From NCBI GenBank assembly GCA_963845565.1, contig CAWJSJ010000005.1, positions 952,818 through 1,016,817 on the forward strand: a stretch of 64,000 nucleotides of DNA, read 5' to 3'. The notes below the pieces were generated by a model, which worked only from the letters and a program-made list of their open reading frames with translations, was not told the DNA's origin and did no database searches. This document shows positions 2,173 to 42,347 of this stretch, one piece after another. How positions within the stretch are numbered: the first letter of the stretch is position 1; each line of letters starts with the position of its first letter. The stretch comes from an uncultured Methylomirabilota bacterium. Its GTDB lineage: Bacteria; Methylomirabilota; Methylomirabilia; Methylomirabilales; 2-02-FULL-66-22. Both the position numbers and the translations under genes were made by a program.

Positions 2173-2201
2173 TTGACAGCCCGGAGGGCCTGGGCTAGAG
2201 T
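2173..2201 (+). promoter_or_regulatory. sigma70-type promoter of glp operon
   Basis: TTGACA (2173-2178), 17 nt spacer, TAGAGT (2196-2201). Confidence 0.7.
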
Positions 2202-2238
2202 GCCCGCAATGTTACGGGGTTGCTGAGACAAGTCGAAA

Positions 2239-2319
2239 TCCTCGCCGGGGCGGAGAAAAGAGAAAGTCCTAACGAGGGGCGATTCGTGGGATCGCCTTTT
2301 GTTAGGACTTCGTGTTTCC
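2239..2319 (+). promoter_or_regulatory. Putative GlpP-responsive attenuator leader
   Basis: GAGA-rich motif followed by inverted repeat AAGTCCTAAC(2264-2273)...GTTAGGACTT(2301-2310) with inner GGCGAT/ATCGCC stem, between the promoter and glpP; same layout at 17373-17452. Confidence 0.65.
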
Positions 2320-2328
2320 GGGGGATGT

Positions 2329-2934
2329 ATGACGAACGCGCGCGAGCGGTTTTTCCAGGCCCTCAAAACCAAACCCGTCGTCGCCGGGCTGCGGCGCTCG
2401 GCGGACGTGGACGGGGCGATCCGGCACGGGATCGGGGTCCTCTTCATCCTGGGCGAGGACATCTTCGCGCTGCAGGAGAGCGTGGCCAAGGCCCACGGAG
2501 GGGACCGGCTGATCCTGGCGCACGTGGACCTGATCAAGGGCATCGGGCGAGACGAGGCCGGCGTCCGGTTCCTGGCGCGGGACCTTCACGTGGATGGGAT
2601 TTTGACCACCCGCGCGAACCTGATCGGTCCCGCCAAGCGGGAAGGCCTGATCGCCGTGCAACGGCTCTTCGTGCTGGACTCGGAATCGCTGGAAGCGGGC
2701 GTGCCCGCCGTGGAGCGGGCGGCCCCCGATGCGGTGGAGGTGCTGCCGGGGGTGATCCTTCCGCTGATCGCGCCGCGCCTCAAGGCGGCCAATCTTCCAC
2801 CCCTGATCGCCGGGGGACTGATCCGCACCCGTGCCCAGGTGGAGGAGATCCTCGCGGCGGGAGCGATCGGGGTGTCAACGGGCGAAGCGGCCCTGTGGGG
2901 CTTCCGTGCAAACAAGGAGCAGACGAATCGATGA
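2329..2934 (+). CDS. glpP: Glycerol-3-phosphate responsive antiterminator GlpP
   Basis: HVDLIKG...DGILTTR...QRLFVLDS...PDAVEVLPG...PLIAGGLI motifs; upstream of glpD. Confidence 0.92.
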   Translation: MTNARERFFQALKTKPVVAGLRRSADVDGAIRHGIGVLFILGEDIFALQESVAKAHGGDRLILAHVDLIKGIGRDEAGVRFLARDLHVDGILTTRANLIGPAKREGLIAVQRLFVLDSESLEAGVPAVERAAPDAVEVLPGVILPLIAPRLKAANLPPLIAGGLIRTRAQVEEILAAGAIGVSTGEAALWGFRANKEQTNR

Positions 2935-4623
2935 AAGGCGGACTGGCGGACATCAACGGACGGATCTTCGACCTGGTCGTGATCGGCGGCGGCATGGCCG
3001 GGGCCGGGATCGCTCGGGACGCCGCGCTGCGCGGCTATCGGACCCTGCTGTTGGAGCGGAAGGATTTCGCGTTCGGGACAACCAGCCGCTCCTCGAAGCT
3101 CATTCATGGCGGTCTTCGCTACCTGGAGCTGTTCGATGTCGGCCTGGTACGGGAGTCGCTCCGCGAGCGCGAACGCCTGGCGCGCCTGGCGCCGCACCTG
3201 GTGCGTCCGCTGCCGTTCTTGGTGCCGGTGTATCGCGGGGCCAAGCGCGGTATGCTCATGATTCGTATGGGCATGAAATTCTATGACCTGCTGACGCCGG
3301 GGAAGCGCACGGAACACTACCGGACCATCTCCCGGGACAAGACCCTGAGCCTTGAGCGCTTTCTGGAGCCGCGGGACCTCCAGGGCGCGGGTTACTACTT
3401 TGACGACCTCCTCCTCCTGCCCGAGCGGTTGTGCCTCGAAAACGTCCTTTCGGCCCAACGATGGGGCGCCTCGATCCACAATTACGCGGAGGTGCGTGGG
3501 CATTGCGAGCCGCGAGCCGCGAGCCGCGAGCCACGAGTGGGAGATCGAGGTGCGTGGAGCCGTGGACGGAAGCATCGCGCGGGTCACGGCGCGCGTGGTG
3601 GTGAACGCCGCGGGGCCCTGGGCCGACCAGGTGCGCCGGCTGGCGGGCGTGGACGGGGGAAAGCGGTGCGTGCGGACGACGAAGGGGATCCACCTGCTCC
3701 TGCCGCGCATCACGGACCACGCGGTGTACATCGCGGCGAAACGGGACGATCGGATGTTCTTCGTCATCCCCTGGCAGCAGTTCACGCTGGTCGGCACCAC
3801 GGACACTGACTTCAGCGGCGACCTGGACCGCCTGGCGGCGACTCGCGAGGAAGTGCACTACCTCATGGATGAGACGCGACGGGTATTTCCGGCGGCTCGC
3901 ATGCGGGATGAGGACGTCTATTACACGTACGCCGGGGTCCGTCCGCTGAGCTTCGAGGAGGGAAAATCCGCCTCCGCCGTCTCGCGGGCCCACAAAGTGA
4001 TCGCCGAGGGCCCGGCCGGGAATTTTCTGTCCATCACCGGGACGAAGTTGACGTGCTTCCGCAGCCTGGCGGAGGAAGCGGTGGATCAGGTGGGGCGTCT
4101 GCTGAACCGCGTCGAGCCTTGCCGCACGCACCGGCTGGCCCTCGACGGGTCGGATGGGGACGAGACGATCGCGGTGCGCCTCTGGGCGGACATCCCGGAC
4201 CTCGGCCATCGGAGCGGCCTCGAGCCCGCCCAGGTGCAGAACCTCTTGGACACCTACGGACGGCGTTACCCGACCGTCCTGACGGTGGCCGGCCGCTCTC
4301 CCGAGATGAAAGAGCGCCTCTGCCCGCAGAACCCCGACATTCGCGCCCAGCTGGCGTATGCCGTGGAGCACGAGTGCACCGAAACGCTCGCCGACTTCCT
4401 GCTGCGGCGGACGGGGATCGGAACCAGCCCGTGCCTGGGGAAGGACTGCTGCGAGCCGATCGCCCGGTGGATGGCAGACCTCAAGGGCTGGGATCGCCAG
4501 CGGGTCGACCGGGAGATTCACCAGTACCTGGAAGAGATCGCCCTGGGGCAGCAGTTCCGGGAGTCCGGGCCGGAAGGCGCCCCGCCCTCGGGCGGTCATA
4601 TTTCTGTAACGGACGCCCGGTAA
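2931..4623 (+). CDS. glpD: FAD-dependent glycerol-3-phosphate dehydrogenase (apparent +1 frameshift near 3495-3532)
   Basis: DLVVIGGGMAGAGIARDAALRG, GTTSRSSKLIHGGLRYLE in first frame; VVNAAGPWAD, VGTTD, YAGVRPL, GTKLT, RRT in second frame. Confidence 0.9.
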
Positions 4624-4714: not shown

Positions 4715-5614
4715 GTGCCACGCATGGGATCGACCGGCCGTCGCCTGCAGATCGGCGCGGGATGCGCGGCTGCGCTCTGGGTACTGACGCTGAGCCCGCT
4801 CGCGAGGAGTGCCATGACAGCCGAGACGACCCAGGGATTCCCGCCGCACCTGTCGCTCCAGGCCCACCGGGGCGCTGCGGGCCTGGCGCCCGAGAATACG
4901 CTGGCGGCCTTCCGGATGGCCCTCGACCTGGGTGCCGACGGCACCGAGATGGACCTGCAGGTCACCAAAGACGGCATCGTGGTCGTGATCCACGACGATA
5001 CCGTGGACCGGACGACCGACGGTCGCGGCCGGATCGGGGATCTGACGCTGACCGAGATCAAGCGTCTGGACGCCGGCGCGAAGTTCGGGCCGGCGTTCCG
5101 CGGCGAGCGTATTCCGACGCTCCGGGAACTCATCGACCTGGTCAAGACCAGCGGGAAGGACCGGTTCCGCCTGAACCTGGAGATCAAGTTCGCCGAAGGG
5201 CGAGAGGGGCAACCCGCGGATCTCGAGGAGCGGGTGCTGGCGGACCTCACCGAAACGAACTTCCTGGGTCGGGTGATCACCCAGTCGTTCTACCACCCCT
5301 CCGCAGCCAAGATGAAGCGTCTGGCGCCCGGGGTGCCCGCCGGCCTCCTGGTCGGGCAGAAGCGGCAGCCGGGCGACCCGGTGGCGGCGGTCCGCGACCA
5401 CCGCGTGGACTACTATGCACCGCACTACTCGCTGGTGACGCCCGAACTCCTGCGGACCCTCCATCAGGCGGGCATCCCGGTAGTCACCTGGACGGTGAAC
5501 GACCCGGCGGACATGCGCCGCCTGATGAGCATGGGGCTGGGCTCCCTGCCGGGGGACGGGATGATCTCGGATTACCCGGATCGGTTGGTGAACCTGCGGA
5601 AGACTCGTCAGTAG
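4715..5614 (+). CDS. glpQ: Glycerophosphodiester phosphodiesterase (exported)
   Basis: AHRG...PENTLAAF...EMDLQVTKDG...HD...DRTT motifs; N-terminal signal-like segment. Confidence 0.9.
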   Translation: MPRMGSTGRRLQIGAGCAAALWVLTLSPLARSAMTAETTQGFPPHLSLQAHRGAAGLAPENTLAAFRMALDLGADGTEMDLQVTKDGIVVVIHDDTVDRTTDGRGRIGDLTLTEIKRLDAGAKFGPAFRGERIPTLRELIDLVKTSGKDRFRLNLEIKFAEGREGQPADLEERVLADLTETNFLGRVITQSFYHPSAAKMKRLAPGVPAGLLVGQKRQPGDPVAAVRDHRVDYYAPHYSLVTPELLRTLHQAGIPVVTWTVNDPADMRRLMSMGLGSLPGDGMISDYPDRLVNLRKTRQ

Positions 5615-5663: not shown

Positions 5664-7016
5664 ATGAAAAGGATGTCTCGTTTCCGAGTAGTGGCCGTAC
5701 TGGTGATCGGGCTCGGCATTGCCGCGGCGCTGGTCCCAGCGTTCGCGCAGGCCCAGCAGAAGGTTCAGGTGGACTTCTGGCACGGTCTCACCCAGCCCCT
5801 GGGCGGCATCCTGGAAGATGTCGCCGCCGGTTTCAACGCCTCACAGGGCAAGTATCAGGTCAACGCCACCTTCAAGGGGAGCTACCCCGAGACCATGGTG
5901 GCGGCCATCGCCGCCTTCCGGGCCGGCAACGCCCCGCACATCGTGCAAATGTTCGAGGTGGGTACCGCCACCATGATGGCGGCGCGCACGGCCATCAAGC
6001 CGGTGTACGAGCTGTCGAAGGAGACCGGCGTCAATATCGATCCGAAGAACTACGTCGGCGGGGTGCGCGGCTACTACAGCACGACCGACGGCCGGCTGGT
6101 CTCGATGCCGTTCAACAGCTCGACCCCTATCACCTGGTATAACAAGGACGTCTTCAAGAAGGCGGGCCTCGACCCCGAGAAGCCGCCCCGGACCTGGGAG
6201 GAGACCTGGGCCGCCGCCAGGAAGATCGTGACATCCAAGGCGGCCACCTGCGGGTACACCATGGCGTGGCCCACCTGGACGCAGTACGAGAACTTCAGCG
6301 CCATCCATAACGTGCCGCTTGCCACCAAGGCCAACGGTATGGAGGGGATGGATGCCGAGATGAAGATCGACAGCCCGCTGCACGTCAAGCACTTGCAGAA
6401 CATGATGGACGCGCAAAAGGAAGGCGTCTTTAAGTACGGCGGGCGAGATGGACGGGCCGATGCCCTCTTCCCGTCCGGTGAGTGCGCCATCTTCCACGGC
6501 TCCTCCGGCATGCGCGCCCGTGTTATTCGCGAGGCGAAGTTCCAGTGGGGCGTGGCCATGCTGCCGTATTACAAAGGTGTGCCGGGTGCCCCGAAGAACG
6601 GCATCATCGGGGGCGCCAGCCTCTGGGTGATGACCTCCCCGAAGCGCACGACCGAGGAGTACAAGGCCGTGGCGGAGTTCTTCCAGTACATCTCCCGCCC
6701 GGAAGTGGACGCCAAGTGGCACATGGATACCGGTTACGTGCCCATCACGTTGGCGGGAATCAGCCTCGCCTCCGGGCAGGGCTACTACATCAAGAACCCC
6801 GGCGCGGACGTCCCCTTCCGCCAGCTCACGCTGACCGAGCCCACCAAGAATTCCATGGGGCTGCGGCTGGGTAACATGCCGGAGATCCGGGTGATCATCC
6901 AGGAGGAGATGGAGAAGTCGTTCCAGGGCCAGCAGACCGCCAAGGCCGCCCTGGACAGCGCCGTCAAGCGCAGCAACGTGGTCCTGCGGAACTTCGAGCG
7001 GACGAACAAGCAGTAG
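5664..7016 (+). CDS. ugpB: sn-glycerol-3-phosphate ABC transporter substrate-binding protein
   Basis: FWHG...FKGSYPET...AAFRAGNAPHIVQMFEVGTATMMAA...SMPFNSST...IIGGASLWV; signal peptide. Confidence 0.93.
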   Translation: MKRMSRFRVVAVLVIGLGIAAALVPAFAQAQQKVQVDFWHGLTQPLGGILEDVAAGFNASQGKYQVNATFKGSYPETMVAAIAAFRAGNAPHIVQMFEVGTATMMAARTAIKPVYELSKETGVNIDPKNYVGGVRGYYSTTDGRLVSMPFNSSTPITWYNKDVFKKAGLDPEKPPRTWEETWAAARKIVTSKAATCGYTMAWPTWTQYENFSAIHNVPLATKANGMEGMDAEMKIDSPLHVKHLQNMMDAQKEGVFKYGGRDGRADALFPSGECAIFHGSSGMRARVIREAKFQWGVAMLPYYKGVPGAPKNGIIGGASLWVMTSPKRTTEEYKAVAEFFQYISRPEVDAKWHMDTGYVPITLAGISLASGQGYYIKNPGADVPFRQLTLTEPTKNSMGLRLGNMPEIRVIIQEEMEKSFQGQQTAKAALDSAVKRSNVVLRNFERTNKQ

Positions 7017-7050
7017 CAACGCCCGAAAGGCCTCCCGCCAAGAGGAGAAC

Positions 7051-7144
7051 GAAACCACAGATTACGCAGATTGCACAGATTCTTCCGTGGCCTGTATCCC
7101 ACAGACTCAGTCTTATTCGTGAAATCTGTGCAATCTGTGGTTTC
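7051..7144. repeat. Inverted pair of 9-mer tandem repeats (CACAGATT-type palindrome)
   Basis: GAAACCACAGATTACGCAGATTGCACAGATT ... GAAATCTGTGCAATCTGTGGTTTC between ugpB and ugpA. Confidence 0.8.
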
Positions 7145-7203
7145 TGCCTTGCTCTGAGCCTTGGCGGTGGCTTTCTGAAACTCCGGATGCCCGGGAGCCG
7201 CCG

Positions 7204-8082
7204 ATGCGCCGGCGCGTCATCTTTCCGAACAAGGTCCTTCCGTACGTGCTCCTCGCCCCCCAGTTGGTCATCACCATCATCTTCTTCTATTGGCCCGCCA
7301 TGCAGGCGATTTATTATTCGGTCCTGCTGCAGGATCCGTTCGGGCTGCGCACCCAGTTCGTCTGGCTGGAGAACTTCCAGACCATATTGAGCGACGCGCT
7401 GTATCTCGGGTCCGTACAGGTGACCGTGGTGTTTTCCTCCGCCGTGGCCGCCCTCTCGATGGGGGTGGCGCTTCTGTTCGCGGTGATGGCGGACCGGAAG
7501 ATCCACGGGAAACACGTGTACCGGACGTTGCTCATGTGGCCCTACGCGGTCGCGCCCGCGGTGGCCGCCAGCCTCTGGCTGTTCATCTTCCACCCCGAGA
7601 TCGGATTCCTGGGCCGCTGGCTGAACGAGATCGGGATGCGCTGGGACTACAAGCTGAACGGGAACCAGGCGCTGCTTCTGGTCATCCTGGCTGCGTCATG
7701 GAAGCAGGTGAGCTACAACTTCCTGTTCTTTCTGGCCGGCCTGCAGGCCATCCCGAAATCGGTGGTCGAGGCGGCCTCCATGGACGCGGGGCCGGGACGG
7801 ACGTTCTGGAACATCATCTTTCCCCTGCTCTCGCCGACCACCTTCTTTCTCCTCGTCGTGAACGTGGTCTACGCCTTCTTCGATACCTTCGGCGTCATCC
7901 ATGCCATCACCGGAGGCGGACCGGCCAAGGCGACGGAGACGCTGATCTACAAGGTGTACGTGGACGGCGTGATGAATCTGGATCTTGGGGGGTCCTCGGC
8001 GCAGTCGGTGATCCTCATGGTGGTGGTCATCGCCTTGACCGCCGTGCAGTTCCGCTTCATCGAGCGCAAGGTGCACTATTGA
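7204..8082 (+). CDS. ugpA: G3P ABC transporter permease
   Basis: PYVLLAPQL...FFYWPA...[19 protein letters not shown]...EAA loop...FFDTFG. Confidence 0.93.
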
Positions 8083-8933
8083 TGGGCTCACGCAACGGCC
8101 CGGTGAACTGGCTTCCCCATTTCGTCCTGAGCGTCGGCGTGGTGGTGTTCGCCTTCCCGATCTATTTCGCGCTGATCGGCTCCACCCACGAGGCTGCCAC
8201 CATCGCGACCGGTCGGATGCCGCTCCTGCCGGGCGGTCACCTGCTCGACAACTACTGGCACGCCTTGACCAGCGGGACAGGGTTCCGCGTCTCCGGGACG
8301 CCGGTGGGCACCCTGCTGCTCAACAGCCTGGTGATGGCGCTGGTCATCGCCGTGGGGAAGATCGCCATCTCCATCATCTCGGCGTACGCCGTGGCCTTCT
8401 TCAGCTTTCCGGGCCGCATGTTCTTCTTCTGGATGATCTTTGTCACCCTGATGCTCCCCGTCGAGGTCCGGATCATCCCGACCTACAAGGTGGTGACCGA
8501 TCTTCACATCGTCAACACCTTCACCGGACTCACCGTGCCGCTGATTGCCTCGGCCACGGCGACACTGCTCTTCCGCCAGGTGTTCCTGACCATCCCCGAC
8601 GAGCTGGCGGAAGCGGCCAAGATCGATGGGGCCGGCGCCCTCCGGTTCTTCTGGCAGATCGTATTACCGCTCTCCCGGACGAACATCGCCGCGCTGTTCG
8701 TGATCCTCTTCATCTACGGCTGGAACCAGTACCTGTGGCCGCTCCTCGTCACCACCGACCGTAGCATGGAGACCATCGTCATCGGCATCGTCAAGATGAT
8801 CGGCACCAGCGAGGCGCAGACCGACTGGAACCTGATCATGGCGACCGCCGTCCTGGCGATGATCCCCCCGGTGGCCGTGGTCGTCTTTCTGCAGCACTGG
8901 TTCGTGAAGGGACTGGTCGAGACGGAGAAGTAG
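8082..8933 (+). CDS. ugpE: G3P ABC transporter permease
   Basis: ATG overlaps ugpA stop; GKIAISIISAYA...TLMLPVEVRIIPTY...PLIASATAT...WNQYLWPL...WFVKGLVETEK. Confidence 0.93.
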   Translation: MGSRNGPVNWLPHFVLSVGVVVFAFPIYFALIGSTHEAATIATGRMPLLPGGHLLDNYWHALTSGTGFRVSGTPVGTLLLNSLVMALVIAVGKIAISIISAYAVAFFSFPGRMFFFWMIFVTLMLPVEVRIIPTYKVVTDLHIVNTFTGLTVPLIASATATLLFRQVFLTIPDELAEAAKIDGAGALRFFWQIVLPLSRTNIAALFVILFIYGWNQYLWPLLVTTDRSMETIVIGIVKMIGTSEAQTDWNLIMATAVLAMIPPVAVVVFLQHWFVKGLVETEK

Positions 8934-8937
8934 GCGT

Positions 8938-9912
8938 TTGGGATATTGGGCGACTGGGCAACGAGGCAATTGGGTTAGGCACAGACAGGCCGGCAAGAGG
9001 ACGTTGTGTCTGGCCGCGCTGATCGTCCTTCTGGCCGGGGCTGGCTGCACCCCGACCTTTGCCTCGGACGAACGGACCCACCATGTGGTCGTCCTGGGGG
9101 ACCCGCACCTTCCGGGACGACACCTGCCGGCCAAGCAGGCGGTCCTCCGGACCATCAACGGGTGGGCCGATGTCGATCGCGTCGTGGTCCTGGGCGATAT
9201 CTGCGAGGACCGGGGGACGGCAGAGGAGTACGCGTTCGCCAGGCAATTCTTCGCCACGTTGACCGCGCCGACCCACTTTCTCGTCGGCAACCACGACTAT
9301 ATCTACGAAGACGGGCCGAATGCCCGCGGAGGTCGGACCAGGGGCAGCCCGGACAGCCGCGCGGCGAAGCTCCGGCGATTCCGGGAGGCCTTCGGCCTGG
9401 ACGAGGTGTATTCCAGTCGGCGGGTCGGGAATTATCTGCTCGTCTTCCTGTCCACCGATCACCTGCTGTCGCCGCACCTTGCGCAGATCTCCGGGCGCCA
9501 ACTGGACTGGTTGCGCGCGGAGCTCCGCCGGCACAGCACCACGCCAACAGTCATCTTCTTCCACGCTCCCCTCCGCGGCACGCTCCTCGACTTCAACGAC
9601 CGTGTCAACAAGGACGACTACGTCGCGCAGCCGCATGCGGAGCTGCGCGAGCTGCTCCTGCGGAACCGCCAGGTGTTCCTGTGGGTCGCCGGGCACCTGC
9701 ACGTGTCCGCCACCAACGAGAGCTACCGGTCGGCGATCAACCTGTTCGAGGGGCAGGTGACGACCGTCCACGTCACCGACATGCAGCGGGAGCGGATCTG
9801 GACCACGTCGCTGTTCCTCCATTCCGACCGGGTCGTCGTGAAGACCTTCGATCACCAGCAGGGCGCCTGGGTCGAGGAGGTGGAGCGGACGGTGAAACCG
9901 GGACGATACTAA
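8938..9912 (+). CDS. Calcineurin-like metallophosphoesterase, probable lipoprotein (start uncertain)
   Basis: GDPH, LGD, GNHD, FH, GHLH metal-binding motifs; LLAGAGC lipobox-like segment. Confidence 0.82.
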
Positions 9913-9929: not shown

Positions 9930-11432
9930 ATGGACACCTACGTATTGGCCCTGGATCAGGGCACGACCAGCTCCCGCGCGATCCTGTTCGACCGACAGGC
10001 CCGGGTGAAGGCGGTGGCCCAGCGGGAGTTCCGGCAGATCTACCCGCAGCCGGGTTGGGTGGAACACGACCCGCTGGAGATCTGGGAGAGCCAGCTCGCC
10101 GTGGCGCGGGAGGCCATCGCCTCGGCCGGGGTGACGGCGGCGCAGATCGCGGCCATCGGGATCACCAACCAGCGCGAGACGACCGTCGTCTGGGATCGGC
10201 GCACCGGCACGCCTGTGCATAACGCCATCGTGTGGCAGTGCCGACGGTCGGCCGCGATCTGCGACGCGCTGAAGGCCGGCGGCTGGGAATCGGCGGTGCG
10301 GCAGCGCACGGGTCTCGTGATCGACGCGTACTTCTCGGGCACCAAGATCCAGTGGCTCCTGGAGCACGTGCCGGGCCTCCGCGCCCGGGCGGACGCCGGC
10401 GAGGTCTGCTTCGGCACGGTGGATACATGGCTCGGCTGGAAGCTCTCGGGGGGGCGGACCTGGGTGACGGACTACAGCAACGCCTCCCGGACGATGCTCT
10501 TCAACATCCACCAGCTCGCCTGGGATGCCAATCTGTGCGGCGCCCTGGGCGTGCCCGTGCGGATGCTGCCGGAGGTGCGACCGTCCAGCTTTCGGTACGG
10601 GCACACGACCCCGGATCTCTTCGGGGCCGAGATCCCCATCGCCGGTATCGCTGGGGACCAGCAGGCCTCCTTGTTCGGCCAGGCCTGCTTCGCGCCCGGA
10701 ATGGCGAAGAACACCTACGGGACCGGCTGCTTCCTCTTGATCCACACGGGGGATCGGCCGGTGGCATCGCAGGCGGGCCTGCTCACGACGATCGCGGCCA
10801 GCCCCGTCGAGGGACGGGCCGAGTATGCCCTGGAGGGCAGTATCTTCATCGCGGGCGCGGCCATCCAGTGGTTGCGGGACGGGCTCCGGGTCATCGCCGA
10901 CTCGGCGGAATCGGAAGCCCTGGCCGCCTCCGTGCCGGACACCGACGGCGTGTACTTCGTGCCGGCGTTCGTGGGCCTGGGTGCGCCGCACTGGGACATG
11001 TACGCGCGCGGCACCATCCTGGGCCTGACGCGCGGGACGACCCGCGCCCACCTGGTCCGCGCCGCGCTGGAGGCGATCGCGTATCAGAGCCGCGAGGTGC
11101 TGGGGGCGGCGCTCTCCGACGCCGGCTTGACGCTGGCGGAGTTGCGGGTGGACGGCGGGGCCACGGCCAACAACCTGCTGATGCAGTTCCAGGCCGACAT
11201 CCTGGCGACGCCGGTGGTCCGGCCGGTCGTCCGGGAGACGACGGCCCTGGGCGCGGCCTACCTCGCCGGCCTGGCCGTCGGCTACTGGGCAAGCCGCGAG
11301 GAGATCGCGCAGAACTGGGCCGCCGACCGGCGGTTCCTGCCCCGGATGGAGCCGACGCGGCGGGAAGAGTTGTTCGCCGGCTGGCGCCGCGCCGTGGCCC
11401 GGGCGGCGGGGTGGGCCCAGCCGACGGGCTGA
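9930..11432 (+). CDS. glpK: Glycerol kinase
   Basis: [45 protein letters not shown] motifs. Confidence 0.97.
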
Positions 11433-14951: not shown

Positions 14952-15043
14952 TCGCTGCAACTTGATCTGGATCAAGGCGGGCGGCGGGGCAGTGGGGCAT
15001 GATGGGGTCAGGTTTTCGGCCGATCTGCTGGAGGGCACACATC

Positions 15044-15655
15044 ATGGACGCACACGCGCCGGGTCCGGTTCCGACTTCCTCGAGCGACGACTCGCCCATC
15101 GCGATTCTCGCGGAGGAGCACGCGCTGATCCTCCGGGCCGTGGAACTCTTGGAGCGCGGCCTGGCCCGGCTGGAAGCGGGAACGTCCATGGGCGGGCCGT
15201 TCTTCGCGGCGTTGGTGGAGTTCTTCCAGGTCTTCGCGGATCGGTACCATCACGGCAAGGAGGAGGGTATTTTGTTCCCGTTCATGGTGGCGGAGATGGA
15301 CTACCCCCAGAAGAGCGGCCCGGTCGGGGTGCTGTCCTCGGACCACACGGCTGGCCGGGCCCATGTCCGGGCCATGGCCGATGCGGCGGCCCGGCTGGAG
15401 GCGGAGCCTGCGGTAGCGTCGGAACTCCTGGAGCACGGCCAGGCGTATGCGGTGCTCCTTCGTGCGCACATTGACCGCGAGGATCACAAGGTGTTCCCGA
15501 CGGTCGAAGACTTCCTCGGGTCGGACGAGCGCGCCGGTCTCTGCGCGGCGTTCGCTCGATTCGAGTCGGCGGAAGGGGGACAGCGCACCGCGGCGCACTA
15601 CGCGGACGTGGTCGGGGTGCTGGAACGTGACATGGGATGGCCGGATCGCTCGTGA
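15044..15655 (+). CDS. Hemerythrin-like (HHE cation-binding) protein
   Basis: EEHALI...HHGKEEGILFP...DH...HIDREDHKVFP. Confidence 0.88.
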   Translation: MDAHAPGPVPTSSSDDSPIAILAEEHALILRAVELLERGLARLEAGTSMGGPFFAALVEFFQVFADRYHHGKEEGILFPFMVAEMDYPQKSGPVGVLSSDHTAGRAHVRAMADAAARLEAEPAVASELLEHGQAYAVLLRAHIDREDHKVFPTVEDFLGSDERAGLCAAFARFESAEGGQRTAAHYADVVGVLERDMGWPDRS

Positions 15656-15733
15656 GGCTGCGGGCGACCGCGCGGCGACGGCCAGGACCGCAACCACATT
15701 TGGAGACGGGTGAGAGCAGAAAGGGATAGCGTC

Positions 15734-16327
15734 ATGTCGAATCACGAGCATGGACATCACCATGGCGAGGAGGGGGCGACCCCCACGCAGATCCTGATGG
15801 CGGAGCACGAACTGATCCTCCAGGCGCTCGAGGCGCTGGGGAAGCGGCTGGATCGGATGGGTGACGACCCGACGCCGGCGGATCGGGTCTACTTCGAGAA
15901 GGCCGTCGAATTCCTGCGAGGGTTCGCCGACAAGTGCCACCACGGGAAGGAAGAGGATCTCCTGTTCAAGCGGTTGGGCGAGCAGGGCTTCCCCACCCAG
16001 GGTGGGCCGATCGCGGTGATGTTGTCGGAGCACCAGGCCGGCCGGGCCTTCATCCGCGGGATCGCGGAGGGGGCGGCCAAGATCGGGTCGGACCCCCGGG
16101 CCGCGGAGACGATCCGGCACAACGGCTGGGGGTACATCGAGTTGCTCCGCAATCACATCGCCAAGGAGAACCAGGTCCTATTCCCGATGGCGGATCGGGC
16201 TTTGTCGGCCGAGGATCAGCACGATCTCGCGCACGCCTTTGAGCGGTTCGAAGCGCAGGAGACGGGGGCCGGCGTCCACGAGCGGATGGTCGGGCTGCTC
16301 CAGGAGCTGCGCGCTGGCGCCGGGTAG
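15734..16327 (+). CDS. Hemerythrin-like protein with His-rich N-terminus
   Basis: HEHGHHH; AEHELI...CHHGKEEDLLF...GPIAVMLSEH...HIAKENQVLFP. Confidence 0.9.
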   Translation: MSNHEHGHHHGEEGATPTQILMAEHELILQALEALGKRLDRMGDDPTPADRVYFEKAVEFLRGFADKCHHGKEEDLLFKRLGEQGFPTQGGPIAVMLSEHQAGRAFIRGIAEGAAKIGSDPRAAETIRHNGWGYIELLRNHIAKENQVLFPMADRALSAEDQHDLAHAFERFEAQETGAGVHERMVGLLQELRAGAG

Positions 16328-16403
16328 CCCAACGCGAACTGTTTGAACCGCCAAGGCGCCAAGGACGCCAAGACGATTAGGGTTGAGAGCGGATTCAGGA
16401 TGG

Positions 16404-16556
16404 CAAGCTGCTGAAGAAACTCACTCTCGTGCAGGCTGTTCAAAAAGGTCCAGATGCAAGGCGGTGTGCGGATGCCCGAGTGAGGCGTACTGGAGGTACG
16501 CCGCAGCGAGTGGCGAGGCGCGCCAACGCCGCAGATGGGCGTTTTTCAACGGCCTG
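16404..16556 (+). mobile_element. Family A palindromic element copy 2
   Basis: CAGGCTGTTCAAAAAGGTCCAGATGCAAGGCG...GGCGTACTGGAGGTACGCC...GCAGATGGGCGTTTTTCAACGGCCTG. Confidence 0.85.
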
Positions 16557-16568
16557 CGAGGAGGGGCC

Positions 16569-17051
16569 ATGGAGACGATGCTGATCCAAGAATTTCGGGC
16601 CGACCACCAGCGGATCCGCGGGGCCCTGTTGCGACTCCACCGGGCCATCGAGGATGGCGACGTTCCCCTCGTGCGGACGATCCTGGGAGGCGCCGATACC
16701 TTGCTGGGAGCGCACTTCAAGTTCGAGGAGCTGCACTTGTACCCGGCCCTCTCCGGATTTCTCGGCGACGACGGCGTCCGGCAGATGTTTCACGAGCACG
16801 ACAGCATCTTCCAGGGCGTCGGCGACCTCATCGGGCTGGCCCAGCAAGCCACCTGGGCCGATCCGGAACGGGATGCGGCGCTGGAACATCTCGGGCTCGT
16901 TGGCGACCACCCCGAGAACTGCGACGACCTCTGCCGCTACATCGAGCGCCTCCCGACCGCCCAGCAGGAATCGCTGCTGGCGGAGATGCACGCGATCCGG
17001 CGGGAACGTCCCGCGTTCACCGCCTACGCGACCGAACGACGAATCGCCTAA
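16569..17051 (+). CDS. Divergent hemerythrin-like protein
   Basis: RBS GGAGG; DHQRIR...HFKFEELHLYP...HEHD...DH. Confidence 0.72.
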   Translation: METMLIQEFRADHQRIRGALLRLHRAIEDGDVPLVRTILGGADTLLGAHFKFEELHLYPALSGFLGDDGVRQMFHEHDSIFQGVGDLIGLAQQATWADPERDAALEHLGLVGDHPENCDDLCRYIERLPTAQQESLLAEMHAIRRERPAFTAYATERRIA

Positions 17052-17203
17052 CAGGCCGCTGAAAACGGCCCATCTGCGGCGTTGGGCTGCTTAGGCACTC
17101 GTTGCGGCGTACGCGCAGTACGCCTCACTCGGCCTTGCGCATCCCGCCTGGCATCTGGACCGTTTTGAGCGGCCTGGGGAGAAGCGAGTTTTTCCGCATC
17201 CTG
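17052..17203 (-). mobile_element. Family A palindromic element copy 3
   Basis: Reverse-oriented copy starting right after the TAA stop: CAGGCCGCTGAAAA...CCATCTGCGGCGTTGG...TTTTGAGCGGCCTG...TTTTTCCGCATCCTG. Confidence 0.85.
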
Positions 17204-17316: not shown

Positions 17317-17345
17317 TTGACACTCCCTGGGGTTCCACATAGACT
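17317..17345 (+). promoter_or_regulatory. sigma70-type promoter of ABC transporter operon
   Basis: TTGACA-17nt-TAGACT. Confidence 0.7.
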
Positions 17346-17372
17346 GCCATCGAACTGATCGCCGTTCCCCCG

Positions 17373-17452
17373 TCCTCGTCGCGGAGGGCAGAGACCAGGA
17401 GAAAGCCCCAGCGGTCGGCGGGTCGTCGTCCTGCGCTGGGGTTTGGTGTTTC
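17373..17452 (+). promoter_or_regulatory. Putative GlpP-type attenuator leader
   Basis: TCCTCG...GGGCAGAGACCAGGAGAAAG, stem CCCCAGCG/CGCTGGGG, TTTGGTGTTTC; mirrors the glpP leader. Confidence 0.55.
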
Positions 17453-17488
17453 TGAATGGGCAGATCGCAACAGACAAGGAGGGAACCA

Positions 17489-18613
17489 ATGAAGAATCTC
17501 TGGAGGCTCCTCGGAGTGGCGGTTGTCGCGGTTCTGCTGCTGGGGGCGCCGGCGGCGGCCCAGCAGATCGAAAATGAATTCTATCTCATCACCCCGGTCT
17601 CCAAGGATGTCCATGATCCGGCCCTGAAGGCCTTCGCGGCGTATGTGAAGAAGAAGTATGACGTGAATCTCAAGACCAGCGCCATGCCGCAGGGTACACC
17701 GGTCGCGTATGGCCAGATCGTCGAGTGGAAGGGGAAGCCTCAGGCGGACGTTTTCTGGGGCGGAGAGGGGACGCTGTTCGACCTGCTGGCCGACCAGGGC
17801 CTCCTGGACAAGGTGACCATCCCCAAGGCGATGTGGGATGAGATCCCGGCCACGATCGGCAAACCCGTCGGGCTTCCCCTGAAAGACCCCAAAGGGTTCT
17901 GGGTGGGGACGACGCTGGAACCGTACGGCCTCATCTACCAGCCGACGCTGCTCAAGCGCATGGGCGTGGAGATCAAGGACTGGGACGATTTGCTCAATCC
18001 CAAACTGAAGGGTCATATTGCCCAGTGCACGCCGGACCGGTCGAGCTCGAGCCATGCGAGCTACGAAGTCATCCTGGCCATGCACGGCTGGGAAAAGGGA
18101 TGGGATTGGCTGACCAAGCTGGCGGCCAACACGGGAATCTTCACGGCCCGTTCCCGTGACGTGCCGAGCGTGGTGGCCAAAGGCGAGTTTGCCGTCGGTG
18201 TGGCAGTCCCCAGTTATATGGCCTTCGCCGAAGTTCTCGGCGGTTATGACGTGATGTTCGTTTACCCCAAGAACGCCTACGTGACCCCCGAACCGATGGC
18301 GGTGCTCAAGGGCGCCCCCCACCCCAAGGCTGCCCACGCCTTCATCGAGTTCCTGCTGACCGAGGAAGGTCAGCGAGTCTTCATGGAGCGCGGCCTCTAC
18401 CCCATCACCTCCAAGTACAAGGTGCAGGGCGCCCCCGGCTCTGCCGCGGAGAAGGCGGTCCAGTTCACCGCCGGCATCCGCTCCTTCTATGACATCCAGG
18501 TCGGCAACGTCTACGACCCGAAGATCGCCGGCGAGAAGAAGCGGAACGAGGACGTGAACGCCTACTTCCGGAAGGAGATCGCCGAGAAGCACAAGGAAAT
18601 CATCAAGAAGTAA
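17489..18613 (+). CDS. ABC transporter substrate-binding protein, Fe3+/AfuA/thiamine-like family
   Basis: Signal peptide; PQADVFWGG, WDDLLNPKLKG, VAKGEFAVG, KGAPHPKAAHAFIEFLLTEEGQ. Confidence 0.85.
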   Translation: MKNLWRLLGVAVVAVLLLGAPAAAQQIENEFYLITPVSKDVHDPALKAFAAYVKKKYDVNLKTSAMPQGTPVAYGQIVEWKGKPQADVFWGGEGTLFDLLADQGLLDKVTIPKAMWDEIPATIGKPVGLPLKDPKGFWVGTTLEPYGLIYQPTLLKRMGVEIKDWDDLLNPKLKGHIAQCTPDRSSSSHASYEVILAMHGWEKGWDWLTKLAANTGIFTARSRDVPSVVAKGEFAVGVAVPSYMAFAEVLGGYDVMFVYPKNAYVTPEPMAVLKGAPHPKAAHAFIEFLLTEEGQRVFMERGLYPITSKYKVQGAPGSAAEKAVQFTAGIRSFYDIQVGNVYDPKIAGEKKRNEDVNAYFRKEIAEKHKEIIKK

Positions 18614-18626
18614 TATCCGGTTGCCT

Positions 18627-18768
18627 CAGGTTGCTCAAAGAGGTCCAGATGCAAGGCGGTTAGCCGCAGGCGGGGTACCCAGGCCGCTGGGTCCAGACGT
18701 ACTGGAGGTACGTCGCAGCGAGTGCCGAGGCAAACCAACGCTGCAGATGGGCCTTTTTGAGCAGCCTG
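18627..18768 (+). mobile_element. Family A palindromic element copy 4
   Basis: CAGGTTGCTCAAAGAGGTCCAGATGCAAGGCG...GACGTACTGGAGGTACGTC...CCTTTTTGAGCAGCCTG, inside the operon. Confidence 0.85.
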
Positions 18769-18782
18769 ACATGGGTCGAGCG

Positions 18783-19862
18783 ATGAATATCCGATTGAAG
18801 GACATGGTGAAAAGGTTCGGAACCCTGGAGGCGGTGAGCCACGTGTCCCTGGATATACGGGACGGCGAACTTTTCACCCTGCTGGGGCCTTCCGGGTGCG
18901 GTAAGACGACGATCCTCCGGCTCATCGGCGGTTTTCACAAGCCCGATTCCGGGGAGATTTACTTCGGCGACCGAGAGGTTTCGGCCATCCCTCCCTATGA
19001 GCGGAACATCGGCATGGTCTTTCAGAACTATGCCCTCTGGCCACACATGACCATCTTCGACAATGTGGCCTACGGCCTCAAGATCAAGAAAACGGCCCAC
19101 GCGGAAATGGAGAAGAAGGTAAACCGCGCCCTCTCGCTGGTCAATCTGACGGGCCTCGAAAAGCGATATCCCGGTCAGCTCTCGGGCGGTCAGCAGCAGC
19201 GCGTGGCCTTGGCGCGCGCCCTGGTTCTCAATCCGGACGTGCTGCTGCTCGACGAGCCCCTCTCCAACCTGGATGCCAAGATCCGCCAGCAGGTGCGCGC
19301 CGAAATCCGGAAGCTCCAGAAGGATCTGGCCATCACCGCCATCTACGTGACCCATGATCAGGAAGAGGCCCTGACCCTCTCGGACCGCATCGCGGTCCTC
19401 GATCACGGGAAGCTTCAGCAGCTCGGATCTCCCCGGGATCTCTATCAAAGACCGGCAAACCCCTTTGTTGCCGATTTCATCGGCATCAACAATCTGATCG
19501 CCGGCGAGGTGAAGGAGATCCAGGAGGCGAAGGGCTGGATGGCCGTGCAGACCCGCTTCGGTCTGCTCAAATGCGTCTATGAGGGCCGCTTCAAGACCGG
19601 GGAGGCCTGCAAGGTCACCGTCCGTCCCGAGGTTGCTACCATCTGCAACACCGACGAAAAGAACGACGAGATGAACCTGATCGCCGGGAAGGTCAACTTT
19701 GCTTCCTATATCGGCAACACCATCCGCTACGACATCGCGCTGGATCCGGAGACCCTCTTCAAGGTGGACGTGCAGAATCCCTGGAACCAGAGACCTTTCC
19801 CCATTGACGAGAAGGTGAATGTGCGCTTTCCCATCCAGATCACCCTGGGGATTCCCGCCTGA
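18783..19862 (+). CDS. ABC transporter ATP-binding protein (PotA/AfuC-like, TOBE domain)
   Basis: GPSGCGKT, LSGGQQQR, LLLDEP, YVTHDQ. Confidence 0.95.
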   Translation: MNIRLKDMVKRFGTLEAVSHVSLDIRDGELFTLLGPSGCGKTTILRLIGGFHKPDSGEIYFGDREVSAIPPYERNIGMVFQNYALWPHMTIFDNVAYGLKIKKTAHAEMEKKVNRALSLVNLTGLEKRYPGQLSGGQQQRVALARALVLNPDVLLLDEPLSNLDAKIRQQVRAEIRKLQKDLAITAIYVTHDQEEALTLSDRIAVLDHGKLQQLGSPRDLYQRPANPFVADFIGINNLIAGEVKEIQEAKGWMAVQTRFGLLKCVYEGRFKTGEACKVTVRPEVATICNTDEKNDEMNLIAGKVNFASYIGNTIRYDIALDPETLFKVDVQNPWNQRPFPIDEKVNVRFPIQITLGIPA

Positions 19863-19890
19863 GACGACCTGAGAAGAGAGGGCCCTGAGT

Positions 19891-21603
19891 GTGAAAACAG
19901 AAACCACCATTGCCCTGCGCAAGTCTAGCGTCTGGTCTGAGATGAAAATCAGCGGCCTGCTGGCGTATGGCGCCGTCTGGGCATTTTTCGTCGTTTTTCT
20001 CATCTATCCTCTGATCCGTCTGTTCTACGACAGCTTCACGACCGAGGCGGGGGCCTTTACTTTTTCGAATTTCCAGGATTTCTTCACAGACGCCTTCTAT
20101 CTGAAATCCCTGTTGAACTCCATGATCCTGGGCGTGGCCACCGTGATCACGACCTCCATCATCGGCATCGCGATCGCGTTTCTTCTGCTGCGGTACGATT
20201 TTCCCGGGCGGGGGCTCTTCTCGTACCTGACGATCGTCCCCATGATCATGCCCCCCCTGGTCGGCGTCATGGGTTTCGTCTTCATCCTGGGCCGCGCCGG
20301 AACCGTCAACATCATTCTCCAGGATTATCTCGGCTTTCAGAAGCCGGTCAACTTCATGTACGGACTCCACGGGATTCTCCTGGTGGAGACGCTGCATCTT
20401 TTTCCGCTGATGACGCTTTCCATCGTCGACGCCATGGGAAAGATATCGCCCTCCCTGGACGAGGCGGCTGAGAGCGTCGGGTCCCGGGGGATCCGCAAAT
20501 TCTGGGACATCACGTTCCCGCTGACCACTCCGGGTTATGTTTCCGGGGCGCTCCTGGTCTTCATCTGGACCTTCGCCGACTTTGCCACACCGCTGGTGGT
20601 CGGAATCTCCGACCTGCTCGCCTCCCAGGCCTACCTGAACATCGTTCAGTTCGTGGACCGGCGTCTCTTCAAGATGGGGATCGTCATTTCGGCCATCATG
20701 GTGATCCTGGCCATCCTGTTTCTGATCATTGCCAAGAAGTACGTGTCGATCAAGGATTACAGCTCTCTCTCCTATTCGGTGATCGAGCGGAAGAAGCTCT
20801 CCCCCCTGGCGCAGGTGGGGGCGATCGCCTTCCTGGGGTTCATCCTGATTTTGGCTTTCATTCCCTATCTGGGCCTCGCGCTGGATTCCTTCGGCAAGGG
20901 GTGGGCGCTGACCCCCTTTCCGGTGAAGTACACGCTCCAGTATTTCGAACGGGTGGCCTTCGAGACGCCCAAGTTCATCCTCAACAGTCTGCTCTTTTCG
21001 GGGATATCGGTCGTGATCTGTATCGCCGTGGGGGTGCCGGTGGCCTGGGTGATGTCCCGGACCAAACTTCCGGGGCGCGACGTCCTCGACTCGCTGACCA
21101 CGCTGATCCTGGCCCTGCCGGGGACCGGCATCGGCATCGCTTATATGCGGGCCTTCCGGGACCCCTTCCCCTTCATGGCCACCGCCCTGATCGGCATGTG
21201 GATCATCATTCCCATCGTCCTGGCGGTCCGGCGGCTCCCCTATACGGTGCGGGGGACCTTCGCCTCGCTCTTGATCGTCCACCGCTCCTTCGAGGAGGCG
21301 GCCGAGAGCGTCGGCGCCACCAAGCCCAGGACCTTCAAGGACGTCACGCTCCCCCTCATCTGGAAGGGGGTCCTGGTGGGGTCCCTCTACTCCTTCATCC
21401 TGGCCCTCCAGGAGGCGTCGGCCACGTTGCTGCTGGTCATCCCCGGCCATGAGATGATGACGGTGGGCATCTTCAACTTCTACATCGGCGGCTCCGTCAA
21501 CGAGGCGGCCGCCCTTGGGTTCATCCTGATCATCCTCGGCGCCGCCTGCCTCTTCATCATCAACCGGATGGCTGGCTCCAAGATGGGGGGCGTCTTCGGC
21601 TAG
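19891..21603 (+). CDS. ABC transporter permease, Fe3+/AfuB-like (duplicated domain)
   Basis: Many TM helices; two EAA loops (LDEAAESVG, FEEAAESVGA). Confidence 0.9.
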   Translation: MKTETTIALRKSSVWSEMKISGLLAYGAVWAFFVVFLIYPLIRLFYDSFTTEAGAFTFSNFQDFFTDAFYLKSLLNSMILGVATVITTSIIGIAIAFLLLRYDFPGRGLFSYLTIVPMIMPPLVGVMGFVFILGRAGTVNIILQDYLGFQKPVNFMYGLHGILLVETLHLFPLMTLSIVDAMGKISPSLDEAAESVGSRGIRKFWDITFPLTTPGYVSGALLVFIWTFADFATPLVVGISDLLASQAYLNIVQFVDRRLFKMGIVISAIMVILAILFLIIAKKYVSIKDYSSLSYSVIERKKLSPLAQVGAIAFLGFILILAFIPYLGLALDSFGKGWALTPFPVKYTLQYFERVAFETPKFILNSLLFSGISVVICIAVGVPVAWVMSRTKLPGRDVLDSLTTLILALPGTGIGIAYMRAFRDPFPFMATALIGMWIIIPIVLAVRRLPYTVRGTFASLLIVHRSFEEAAESVGATKPRTFKDVTLPLIWKGVLVGSLYSFILALQEASATLLLVIPGHEMMTVGIFNFYIGGSVNEAAALGFILIILGAACLFIINRMAGSKMGGVFG

Positions 21604-21609
21604 ACCCGA

Positions 21610-21800
21610 CAGGCTGCTGAAAAAGGCCCATCTGCGGGGACCCATCCTCCGGATGGGTACCCCGCCGGCCTCGGCACTCGCTGCGGCGTACCTCCAGTAC
21701 GCCTGGACCCAGCTGCGCTGGGTACCCCGGCCTCCGGCGTGCCGCCTGGCATCTGGGCCTTTTTGAGCAGCCTGAGTGAGACGAGTTCTTCAGCAGCCTG
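21610..21800 (-). mobile_element. Family A palindromic element copy 5 (two nested hairpin modules)
   Basis: CAGGCTGCTGAAAAAGGCCCATCTGCG...TTTTTGAGCAGCCTG...TTCAGCAGCCTG. Confidence 0.85.
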
Positions 21801-22107: not shown

Positions 22108-22707
22108 ATGCACCATAAAGGGAAACCGGTCGACCGGCCCAAGTCGGGGCCCGGCGGCGGAAAGCACGATTTCTTCGGTCACGGGGACGAGATCCGGGCG
22201 GCACTGCTGACGCGGCTGCCCACGCAGGCCATCCGGGCGCTGGACGTCGGCACGGGGTTCGGGCGGAACGCCGTCTTTCTCGCGCGCCATCTGGCGCCGG
22301 GGAGCCACGTCTGGTCGGTGGATCCGTCGGAGGAATCCCTCAAGCAGGGCGCCGCGGCGGTCCAGGAGGCGGAGTTGACGGCGACCGTCACGCTGGGGCC
22401 GGGATCAGCGGAGCGACTGCCGTTCCGGGACGACGAATTCGACCTGACCGTCGGGGTCATGCTGTTCCATCACCTGGTGGAGGTCCCGGCGGCCCTGCGG
22501 GAGATGGGGCGCGTCACCAAGCCAGACGGGAAGTTGCTGATCGTGGACTGGGGGCCGACCGCGCACTTGCTTCCGTTTGCGATCGAGCACCGCCCCGAGG
22601 ATTTCTTTACGCCCCGTGCGGTGGAGAAGATGCTGATGGAGTCCGGGTTCGGGGCCTCGGTGGAACAGCATCCGATGTGGTATGTCGCCGAGGGGATGAA
22701 GGTCTAA
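22108..22707 (+). CDS. Class I SAM-dependent methyltransferase
   Basis: ALDVGTGFG, AERLPFRDDEFD, EMGRVTKPDG. Confidence 0.88.
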   Translation: MHHKGKPVDRPKSGPGGGKHDFFGHGDEIRAALLTRLPTQAIRALDVGTGFGRNAVFLARHLAPGSHVWSVDPSEESLKQGAAAVQEAELTATVTLGPGSAERLPFRDDEFDLTVGVMLFHHLVEVPAALREMGRVTKPDGKLLIVDWGPTAHLLPFAIEHRPEDFFTPRAVEKMLMESGFGASVEQHPMWYVAEGMKV

Positions 22708-22858
22708 CAGGCTGCTGAAAACGACCCATCTGCGGCGTTGGACCGCTTAGGCACTCGTTGCGGCGTACCTGGAGTACGCTCACTCGGCCTTTCGCGTTCC
22801 GCCTTGCATATGGACCGTTTTGAGCAGCCTGGGCGAAGGTGGGTTGTTCAGCAGCCTG
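22708..22858 (-). mobile_element. Family A palindromic element copy 6
   Basis: Starts right after TAA; fills the gap between convergent genes. Confidence 0.85.
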
Positions 22859-34000: not shown

Positions 34001-34356
34001 TCAAATTCCCAGCTCCCATGGTACCCGCTGGCCGTTCACCACAAGTGTTGATGGAGTGACGATACCTGGTGTGATTCCAACAAGTGGAGTAGTCTGAGGG
34101 TCGAGAAGAAACTTTCCACACTCAGTGCCGATCCATCGATGAACGGAACTTTCGAAACCAACCGGTGCATTTACGACTGCTCGCGCTCCGTCCCCGGCAA
34201 TTTTCGACACCTTTAATAGACGGCTGATATGGAAACCCGGCTGCCAAGGGGTGCATTTCAATGAGGGTCCTCTCTGCGACTGCCCCGCTAAGTCCGCGAG
34301 AGTGCGCAGCGCGTTCAAGGGTGTTAGGCCGACCTGGCATGGGCAGTGCCAATCGA

Positions 34357-42017: not shown

Positions 42018-42347
42018 ATGGCGCAGTACTTCATCGATCCGGAGAAGCTGCCGGGGAAGACGCTGGCGCCGGGCGTCCAGCTTCGGGTGGCCTGGGGCCA
42101 GCATCTCATGTTCTCGTTCGTGCGGTTGGAGGCCGGCGGTGTGGTTCCGCTTCACAGCCACCCGCACGAGCAGGGCGGCGTCTGCCTGGAAGGGGCCATG
42201 GAGTTCACCATCGGCGACCAGACCCGCATCGTACGGCGCGGGGAGGGGTGGATGATCCCGGGTGGCGTCACGCACGCGGTCCGCGCGCTCGAAGAGGGTG
42301 CTCAGGCGCTGGACGTCTTTTATCCTCATCGAGAAGACTACAAATAG
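42018..42347 (+). CDS. Cupin domain protein
   Basis: HSHPHEQ...IPGGVTH...DVFYPHREDY. Confidence 0.88.
   Translation: MAQYFIDPEKLPGKTLAPGVQLRVAWGQHLMFSFVRLEAGGVVPLHSHPHEQGGVCLEGAMEFTIGDQTRIVRRGEGWMIPGGVTHAVRALEEGAQALDVFYPHREDYK

Follow-up and report, generated by a model that had tools for sequence, protein, structure and literature searches.

A predicted GlpP-controlled importer of a glycerol phosphate, with relatives annotated as iron transporters, in an uncultured Methylomirabilota bacterium

Antitermination by GlpP and phosphoester binding by solute-binding proteins of the "iron" type are each already known. In Bacillus subtilis, as outlined in PMC9604022 and PMC10573289, GlpP together with glycerol-3-phosphate (G3P) activates glpD, glpFK, and glpTQ by disrupting the terminators in their leaders. 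Table S4, among the supplementary tables of PMC9604022, gives a glpD 5' untranslated region with GGTC, a 14-nt loop containing two GAGA words, and GACC at the terminator foot. The phosphoester transporter AfuABC (Actinobacillus AfuA, 4R72-4R75; Vibrio VcA0625, 8X1A) was also first labeled as an iron system. Here, we describe a three-gene ABC transporter operon (positions 17489-21603) lying behind a glp operon and ~6 kb of unrelated genes in a 64,000-nt stretch of DNA (the window) from an uncultured Methylomirabilota bacterium (GCA_963845565.1, contig CAWJSJ010000005.1, positions 952,818 to 1,016,817; in our numbering G000:C5:952818-1016817, where G000 is the source genome, 5.36 Mb with 66% GC). 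The leaders of the transporter operon and of the glp operon share one RNA hairpin design, and GlpP therefore likely controls the transporter. On balance, we favor the reading that it is a GlpP-G3P-controlled importer of G3P or of a close glycerol phosphoester, and not of iron. The features on which this reading rests are as follows.

17317..17345, plus strand: sigma-70-type promoter of the transporter operon, TTGACA-17-TAGACT (promoter scan)
17369..17422, plus strand: predicted antiterminator of the transporter leader, a predicted GlpP site; core 4-bp hairpin with a 15-nt tandem-GAGA loop at 17386-17408 (folding)
17405..17452, plus strand: terminator-like hairpin at 17405-17442 in competition with the antiterminator; weak U-tail (folding)
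17489..18613, plus strand: solute-binding protein (SBP), AfuA/FbpA fold, cluster D (sequence and structure comparison)
18783..19862, plus strand: ABC ATPase, PhnT2/PotA/FbpC-like (NCBIfam)
19891..21603, plus strand: fused double-domain permease, PhnU2/AfuB/FbpB-like (NCBIfam, Pfam)
2173..2201, plus strand: sigma-70-type promoter of the glp operon, TTGACA-17-TAGAGT (promoter scan)
2231..2284, plus strand: predicted antiterminator stem-loop of the glpP leader in its extended form; the core, at 2247-2270, is a 5-bp hairpin with a 14-nt tandem-GAGA loop (folding)
2265..2318, plus strand: intrinsic terminator of the glpP leader; 20-bp stem at 2265-2309, U-rich tail, z -4.6, pairing in 25 related leaders
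2329..2934, plus strand: glpP, G3P-responsive antiterminator (PF04309, 179.6 bits; cut-off, 27)

The regulator belongs to the same family (PF04309) as that of B. subtilis (single copy in G000; relatives, 3KTS and 1VKF). Promoter, short leader, and tandem GAGA at the foot of the terminator hairpin also correspond (compared by eye; 4 bp and 14 nt), as do the targets, which are glycerol/G3P genes and transporters in both cases. The present system differs in belonging to another phylum, in having glpP as the first gene of its own operon behind the element, in using an ABC system rather than GlpT/GlpF, and in the weak U-tail of the transporter leader. Each of the two scanned regions yielded a single promoter-like site, TTGACA-17-TAGA(G/C)T (0.1 expected from shuffles), and the promoter of the transporter operon recurs in the relatives G009, G003, and G015 and in a remnant in G005. 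A first-pass annotation of the window had placed both leaders behind such promoters, correctly, and the motifs that it reported lie where it put them (TCCTCG at 2239/17373, GAGAAAG at 2260/17399, and GTGTTTC at 2312/17446). However, its view of TCCTCG and GTGTTTC as conserved, defining flanks was rejected: among eight aligned transporter-type leaders, they are confined to G000 and to G009, its near twin, and the 3' and far 5' flanks appear mostly incidental. TCCTCG is typical of glpP leaders, where at 2239-2244 it pairs with the 5' arm of the terminator in folding, but its pairing partner differs between the two window leaders. The full pattern of the first-pass annotation occurs at only these two places in 5.36 Mb, but this count is circular.

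What the leaders share is a core, GGC-R-GAGA-N(3-6)-GAGA, with a long hairpin directly 3' of it. The element is present in all 16 glpP leaders of same-genus genomes that were available at full length; a further leader is truncated at the end of its contig, and the copy in G012 was also found. In nascent-RNA folding, for which start sites were assumed, a helix of 4 to 5 bp closes a purine loop of 13 to 17 nt that contains both GAGA words. The long hairpin uses the 3' strand of this small hairpin as its foot; the two are therefore mutually exclusive, and folding thus accounts for the conservation of the core by the position of both GAGA words in the closed loop and by the double use of the 3' strand. 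A loop-closing helix of at least 4 bp was found in 39 of 42 leaders and at 107 of 810 background GAGA-GAGA sites. The stem letters differ among the glpP, transporter, Acidobacteriota, and Bacillota types of leader, with one double change (L230), and nine of nine transporter-type leaders have kept their GAGA loop and both stems intact. In the long hairpin (25 leaders), 95.6% of the cells are paired and 9 of 18 pairs differ at both positions, for the most part when two lineages are compared. For the glpP leader, the extended antiterminator fold had a probability of 0.87-0.99 at RNA ends 2274-2304 and 0.00 from 2307, where the terminator is closed. For the transporter leader, it was the best fold only at 17424 (0.56), stayed within 0-4.4 kcal/mol of the best fold up to 17439, and then lay 7-11 kcal/mol above it; the stem of this leader is also weaker (z -1.5) than that of the glpP leader (z -4.6). 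These models suggest that the transporter-leader antiterminator is marginally stable and would need protein, whereas that of the glpP leader would dominate until the last pairs of the terminator form.

Genome searches that left out all transporter-type leaders returned to the transporter leader. A weight matrix was built from 29 leaders (14 glpP leaders of other species, 11 from Acidobacteriota, and 4 from Bacillota; G000 and G009 were also excluded). Over 10.7 million positions of G000, it placed the glpP leader at rank 1 (25.9) and the transporter leader at rank 2 (24.5); ranks 3 to 10 (24.3-21.5) fell in long open reading frames, and rank 3, in coding DNA, was only 0.2 bits below the transporter leader. 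The first-pass annotation had proposed a covariance model and a genome scan, and we built the model R1 from 25 leaders, with neither transporter-type nor Bacillota leaders among them. At E <= 10, with 150 of 2044 candidates from the first look scored, R1 recovered two loci in G000 and no others, namely the glpP leader (79.8 bits, plus a reverse-strand echo) and the transporter leader (27 bits; E, 0.139); the genome-wide occurrence at unrelated genes that would have spoken against a GlpP element was thus not seen. On the orthologous transporter leaders, R1 gave 23-48 bits. Because weak R1 matches (24-33 bits) included ordinary terminators, the transporter leader is convincing by its position and its orthologs and not by its own score.

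The element also tracks glpP. The survey covered 61 relatives, including the unpublished G028, which enters the tallies as a single negative row and bears on no other claim. A glpP gene was detected in 17 of the 21 same-genus genomes and in none of the 40 from other families. The R1 matches with E < 0.001 followed the same division (17 of 21, 16 of them with glpP, and 0 of 40). These matches sit at glpP, at glpD, or at a transporter in the glp cluster; weaker ones elsewhere are ordinary terminators or coding DNA. The single matched genome that has no glpP match is G004 (100% complete), whose glpD leader is decayed, with the second GAGA lost. The tandem-GAGA design recurs at glp loci of Bacillus, Paenibacillus, and Acetoanaerobium and 5' of glpD in eight of eight Acidobacteriota loci, and R1 weakly picks a Bacillus leader behind glpP (22.9 bits) and a Paenibacillus glpP leader (20 bits). 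Together with the likeness to the B. subtilis glpD leader, these patterns support the reading of the first-pass annotation that the element is a GlpP target, and we consider it very likely that this GlpP binds the transporter leader. The box alone is not diagnostic, since the short pattern GYRGAGA-N-GAGAR performed no better than a reversed control in three Bacillota records. Rfam gave no match near either leader at E <= 1 (window positions 1-30000). Several candidates were rejected, namely a third site in the window (42032-42116; R1, 21 bits), which lies inside a coding frame; R1 matches in G029, G060 (behind groEL), and G016:C74, which are ordinary terminators; and a motif-like leader 5' of a distant SBP gene in G014 (L027), which has no R1 score at E <= 10.

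In related genomes, the transporter-type leader stands behind glpK and heads one of two kinds of operon. In G000, G009, G003, and G015, it precedes a cluster D SBP operon; in G001, G011, and G017, it precedes a UgpB-like operon (367.6 bits; cut-off, 411). The two systems are thus interchangeable behind the same leader and share a predicted substrate class, although UgpB belongs to another binding-protein cluster, UgpBAEC has two separate permeases, and G000 has both systems. In G024, which belongs to another family and lacks glpP, the SBP gene follows glpD. We further compared 80 homologous loci from GTDB (SBPs of 73-95% identity; flanks of up to 8 kb, many of them shorter; neighbor matches at >=40% identity; counts rich in kin). 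Within 8 kb, 28 of these loci contain glp or ugp genes, 49 contain a HAD phosphatase (33 HAD-IIA and 16 HAD-IIB), 11 contain a Pit-family transporter, and about 13 have molybdopterin genes divergently upstream. The glp arrangements span three phyla: glpABC in Syntrophales-like hosts, glpP plus glpD in eight Acidobacteriota loci, a downstream ugpB-like gene, and an upstream glpK. The same HAD-IIA phosphatase is found inside the glpP-glpD operons of G001, G003, and G011. In G000, no HAD gene adjoins the transporter operon, and the best HAD-IIA match (33% identical) is on contig C2; none of the eight paralogous SBPs of G000 is near glpP, glpD, or glpK. Five Syntrophales/Desulfobacterales-type hosts had GlpK above the cut-off in three cases and UgpB in two, which does not discriminate G3P from another glycerol phosphate.

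Other arrangements were seen around the element and the transporter. In three of the eight Acidobacteriota loci (e.g., L153:6155-7806), a second GlpP-type leader heads an MgtC/SapB-family gene, which is followed by glpP and then by the transporter SBP gene. G003 (L235:1235-5986) carries a second, distant (27%) Afu/PhnS2-like ABC transporter together with HAD-IIA inside its glpP-glpD operon; this transporter may be another candidate glycerol phosphate importer. In Syntrophales-type copies (L004, L005, L006, L007, L016, and L021), the region 5' of the SBP gene is conserved in another form, with a TTGACA-like box between inverted CCGGT arms and then a small G/C hairpin before the ribosome site.

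The SBP itself points to a phosphoester. Its AlphaFold model (mean predicted local distance difference test score, 81.4; 74 alignment rows) has the phosphoester binders AfuA, VcA0625, and P5PA as its top structural matches (VIA: Z, 30.1; root mean square deviation, 2.9; 307 aligned), with ferric-binding proteins close behind, and phosphonate/phosphoester binders are the best matches in both NCBIfam and structure searches. The SBP does not match the UgpB model NF008211 and scores below the cut-off for the aminoethylphosphonate binder PhnS/PhnS2 (79 bits; cut-off, 392.75). The iron ligands of FbpA and HitA are twin tyrosines and an N-terminal His and Glu. The twin tyrosines of HitA correspond to S242-Y243, leaving only one Tyr, and the Glu-Glu of HitA aligns with G92-E93, the alignment stopping short of the HitA His. 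FbpABC/HitABC share the fold and the fused permease with the present system; here, the twin-tyrosine pair is reduced to Ser-Tyr and no iron-uptake neighborhood was seen. Phosphate-contact residues of AfuA and P5PA were taken from PMC4546632 and PMC8427247. In sequence alignments, the AfuA phosphate clamp (Ser37 and Ser148-Gly149-Thr150) maps to T70 and S185-S186-S187, and Ser183 of P5PA maps to S222. None of the 74 rows shows any variation at T70, S185-S187, R184, R221, R223, or E93. The essential AfuA residues His205, Asp206, and Glu229, whose loss abolishes glucose-6-phosphate binding, are not kept (S242, Y243, and T266). The transporter thus shares fold, operon type, and phosphate clamp with AfuABC and differs in its replaced sugar-ring residues and in the additional invariant Arg184, Arg221, Arg223, and Glu93. 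P5PA (6WCE), a pyridoxal-5'-phosphate binder confined to Pasteurellaceae according to its paper, is the best profile match and represents a non-sugar phosphoester binder on the same scaffold, although the position of its ring-binding His203 is not kept here. The residue pattern fits an anionic phosphoester other than a hexose phosphate, and because identity to AfuA and P5PA is only 20-22%, the exact ligand cannot be named from residues. The phosphoester reading of the first-pass annotation accordingly agrees with neighborhoods, closest structures, and residue mapping, all of them computational. From these comparisons, the ligand is likely a glycerol phosphate; G3P itself is a tentative choice among such esters.

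The SBP appears to have a composite history. Its first 25 residues are 52-56% identical to those of G003, G015, and G002 and 28-32% identical to those of G004 and G013; the rest of the protein is 88-100% identical to G004 and G013. In a quick, unrooted tree of 82 mature proteins (fragments and rows of odd length left out), the G000 protein nests in a Syntrophales-rich clade (SH-aLRT, 99), away from G003, G015, and G002. We infer from these alignments that a transferred copy replaced the native SBP and kept the native promoter and leader, and the retention of the native leader over a transferred copy suggests that the native and transferred transporters do the same job. In G005 (L229:8312-8761), a promoter and an intact GlpP-type leader are followed by a permease fragment directly behind a Syntrophales-type operon and represent a remnant of the native copy.

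In the proposed mechanism, G3P-loaded GlpP would grip the tandem-GAGA loop and hold the antiterminator open, letting transcription read through into both operons, including that of GlpP itself (predicted autoregulation). The transporter would import G3P or a sibling ester. This ester would reach GlpD either as such or after passing through a HAD phosphatase and GlpK, and its import would exert positive feedback on GlpP. A number of observations weigh against this reading. On the RNA side, a simple terminator scan was negative for the transporter leader, its U-tail is poor (3 to 5 T of 9 in seven relatives versus 6 to 8 in glpP leaders), and its 27 bits fall among those of ordinary terminators that R1 matched in glpP-less genomes (24-33 bits, behind groEL). 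The 42 leaders are related to one another and fall into some four types, a count of pairs in fixed columns gave no significance for the small hairpin (33 of 500 shuffles reached the same level, in an ungapped 21-row alignment that is out of register), and the upstream extension of the antiterminator was no better than shuffles in single leaders. Among 12 same-genus genomes with a close ortholog, the leader lies directly upstream in 4 and is missing in 8 (6 of which follow glpK, 1 a partial ugpB in the glp operon, and 1 yebC; G013 and G018 were judged by eye). Nearly all of the 80 distant loci lack the leader, 52 of them have no glp gene within 8 kb (some being short), and glpP was found in none of five tested Desulfobacterota-like hosts. 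In G000, UgpBAE already provides redundancy, and glpD is frameshifted in this assembly. For the SBP, the low identity to AfuA and P5PA and the unexplained replacement of AfuA Thr60 by the invariant Glu93 count on the same side.

The leader might instead be an inherited, leaky relic, the horizontally acquired transporter taking another small organophosphate (e.g., phosphoglycolate or triose phosphate) for its HAD phosphatase without effective control by GlpP. The placement of the mature SBP in the Syntrophales-rich clade (with a signal peptide like that of native copies), the 8 of 12 leaderless orthologs, and the weak U-tail all speak for such a relic; HAD phosphatases are commoner neighbors than glp genes (49 versus 28 of 80), and the best matches of HAD-IIA are broad phosphatase models. 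Against it stand the intact GAGA loop and stems in all nine transporter-type leaders; moreover, Syntrophales-type copies adjoin glpABC, Acidobacteriota copies adjoin glpP, and HAD-IIA itself is found within glp operons. We regard this explanation as unlikely. Even less probable in our estimate is that GlpP binds the leader but mainly stabilizes the mRNA or frees the ribosome-binding site rather than blocking termination. The weak U-tail and the failed terminator scan are compatible with such an action, the full-length fold of the G000 leader pairs the Shine-Dalgarno region with 17364-17372, and the title of a 1996 paper by Glatz reportedly names a dual role of GlpP in antitermination and mRNA stability. 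Yet the Shine-Dalgarno pairing is missing from the consensus fold of eight transporter-type leaders, leaving conserved sequestration unsupported, and the overlap of antiterminator and terminator is retained.

The possibility that the database label is right or nearly so, with the SBP binding Fe3+ or a tetrahedral oxyanion such as molybdate or tungstate and the leader match being incidental, is very improbable. In its favor, homologs carry the name "iron(III) transport system substrate-binding protein" in their sources, ferric-binding proteins come close behind the top matches of the fold searches, and neither Y243 nor E93 varies. The window also has three hemerythrin-domain genes just 5' of the operon, and molybdopterin genes recur upstream as noted above. 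Nevertheless, the twin tyrosines are down to one, the hemerythrin genes occur in only 1 of 100 related loci (that of the near twin G009), and no iron-uptake gene was found among 31 scanned neighbor proteins, mostly representatives of the commonest neighbor clusters; the phosphonate/phosphoester binders that lead the NCBIfam and structure matches also argue against iron.

The predicted GlpP-controlled importer stands in the following setting. The glp operon runs glpP, frameshifted glpD, glycerophosphodiesterase, ugpBAE, metallophosphoesterase, and glpK; its members beyond glpP are listed here.

2931..4623, plus strand: glpD-like G3P dehydrogenase, frameshifted near 3495 in the assembly (sequence comparison)
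4715..5614, plus strand: glycerophosphodiester phosphodiesterase, glpQ/ugpQ-like (PF03009)
5664..8933, plus strand: ugpB, ugpA, and ugpE, G3P/glycerophosphodiester ABC importer (NCBIfam, above cut-off)
8938..9912, plus strand: calcineurin-like metallophosphoesterase (PF00149)
9930..11432, plus strand: glpK, glycerol kinase (TIGR01311, above cut-off)

Compared with G009, glpD has one extra base just 5' of a 7-nt repeat run whose length varies among relatives, and the frameshift may be an assembly error or genuine. The ugpB of the window scores 510 with NF008211 (cut-off, 411), and the only ATPase above the UgpC cut-off is on contig C2 (G000:C2:2606738-2607826), distant from ugpBAE. Three tandem hemerythrin-domain genes (14999-17094) lie between glpK and the transporter. 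A gene for an S-adenosylmethionine methyltransferase (22108-22707) lies 3' of the transporter operon and is present in nine related loci, including behind a UgpB-like operon. A palindromic intergenic repeat occurs at 17050-17190, 18620-18770, 21610-21780, and 22707-22830 and attracts many contigs from other places. Contigs from RNA libraries overlap the leader and the operon in part (from 17369 in X17 and from 17398 in X10), although such contigs cannot show transcription, starts, or ends. Farther away is a class D beta-lactamase gene (34261-35181; 250.6 bits; cut-off, 250).

Our literature search, which took in PMC10877136, PMC5737381, PMC3997798, and PMC6225680, returned no paper describing this transporter family, the GAGA-loop hairpin, or GlpP in Methylomirabilota or Acidobacteriota. 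The hairpin may already be marked in the primary publications on GlpP, in DBTBS, in Figure S1 of PMC9604022, or in the supplement of PMC10573289. As a broader and more speculative proposal, to which we give somewhat less than even credence, the transporter would represent the first branch of the AfuA/FbpA family specific for G3P (or for glycerol-1- or glycerol-2-phosphate). It would belong to a lipid-headgroup salvage module (importer, HAD phosphatase, and often Pit and a G3P dehydrogenase) that is mobile among Syntrophales, Desulfobacterales, Acidobacteriota, and Methylomirabilota and was independently placed under GlpP. The tandem-GAGA hairpin would then be the element by which GlpP recognizes its targets across phyla, and it could report on the ligands of orphan transporters. 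GlpP antitermination would be extended to lineages for which we found no description, with a two-state fold, suggested by folding models, offered for GlpP targets including those of B. subtilis. If the proposed ligand is correct, a widespread transporter family of wetland and sediment bacteria, now annotated as an iron importer, would be relabeled with a concrete ligand (of 8000 candidates scored, 2403 reach E <= 1e-30, which is a loose bound, as other subfamilies are included; the best 120 at 76-93% identity). In such habitats, glycerol phosphates from membrane lipids serve as a source of carbon and phosphorus.

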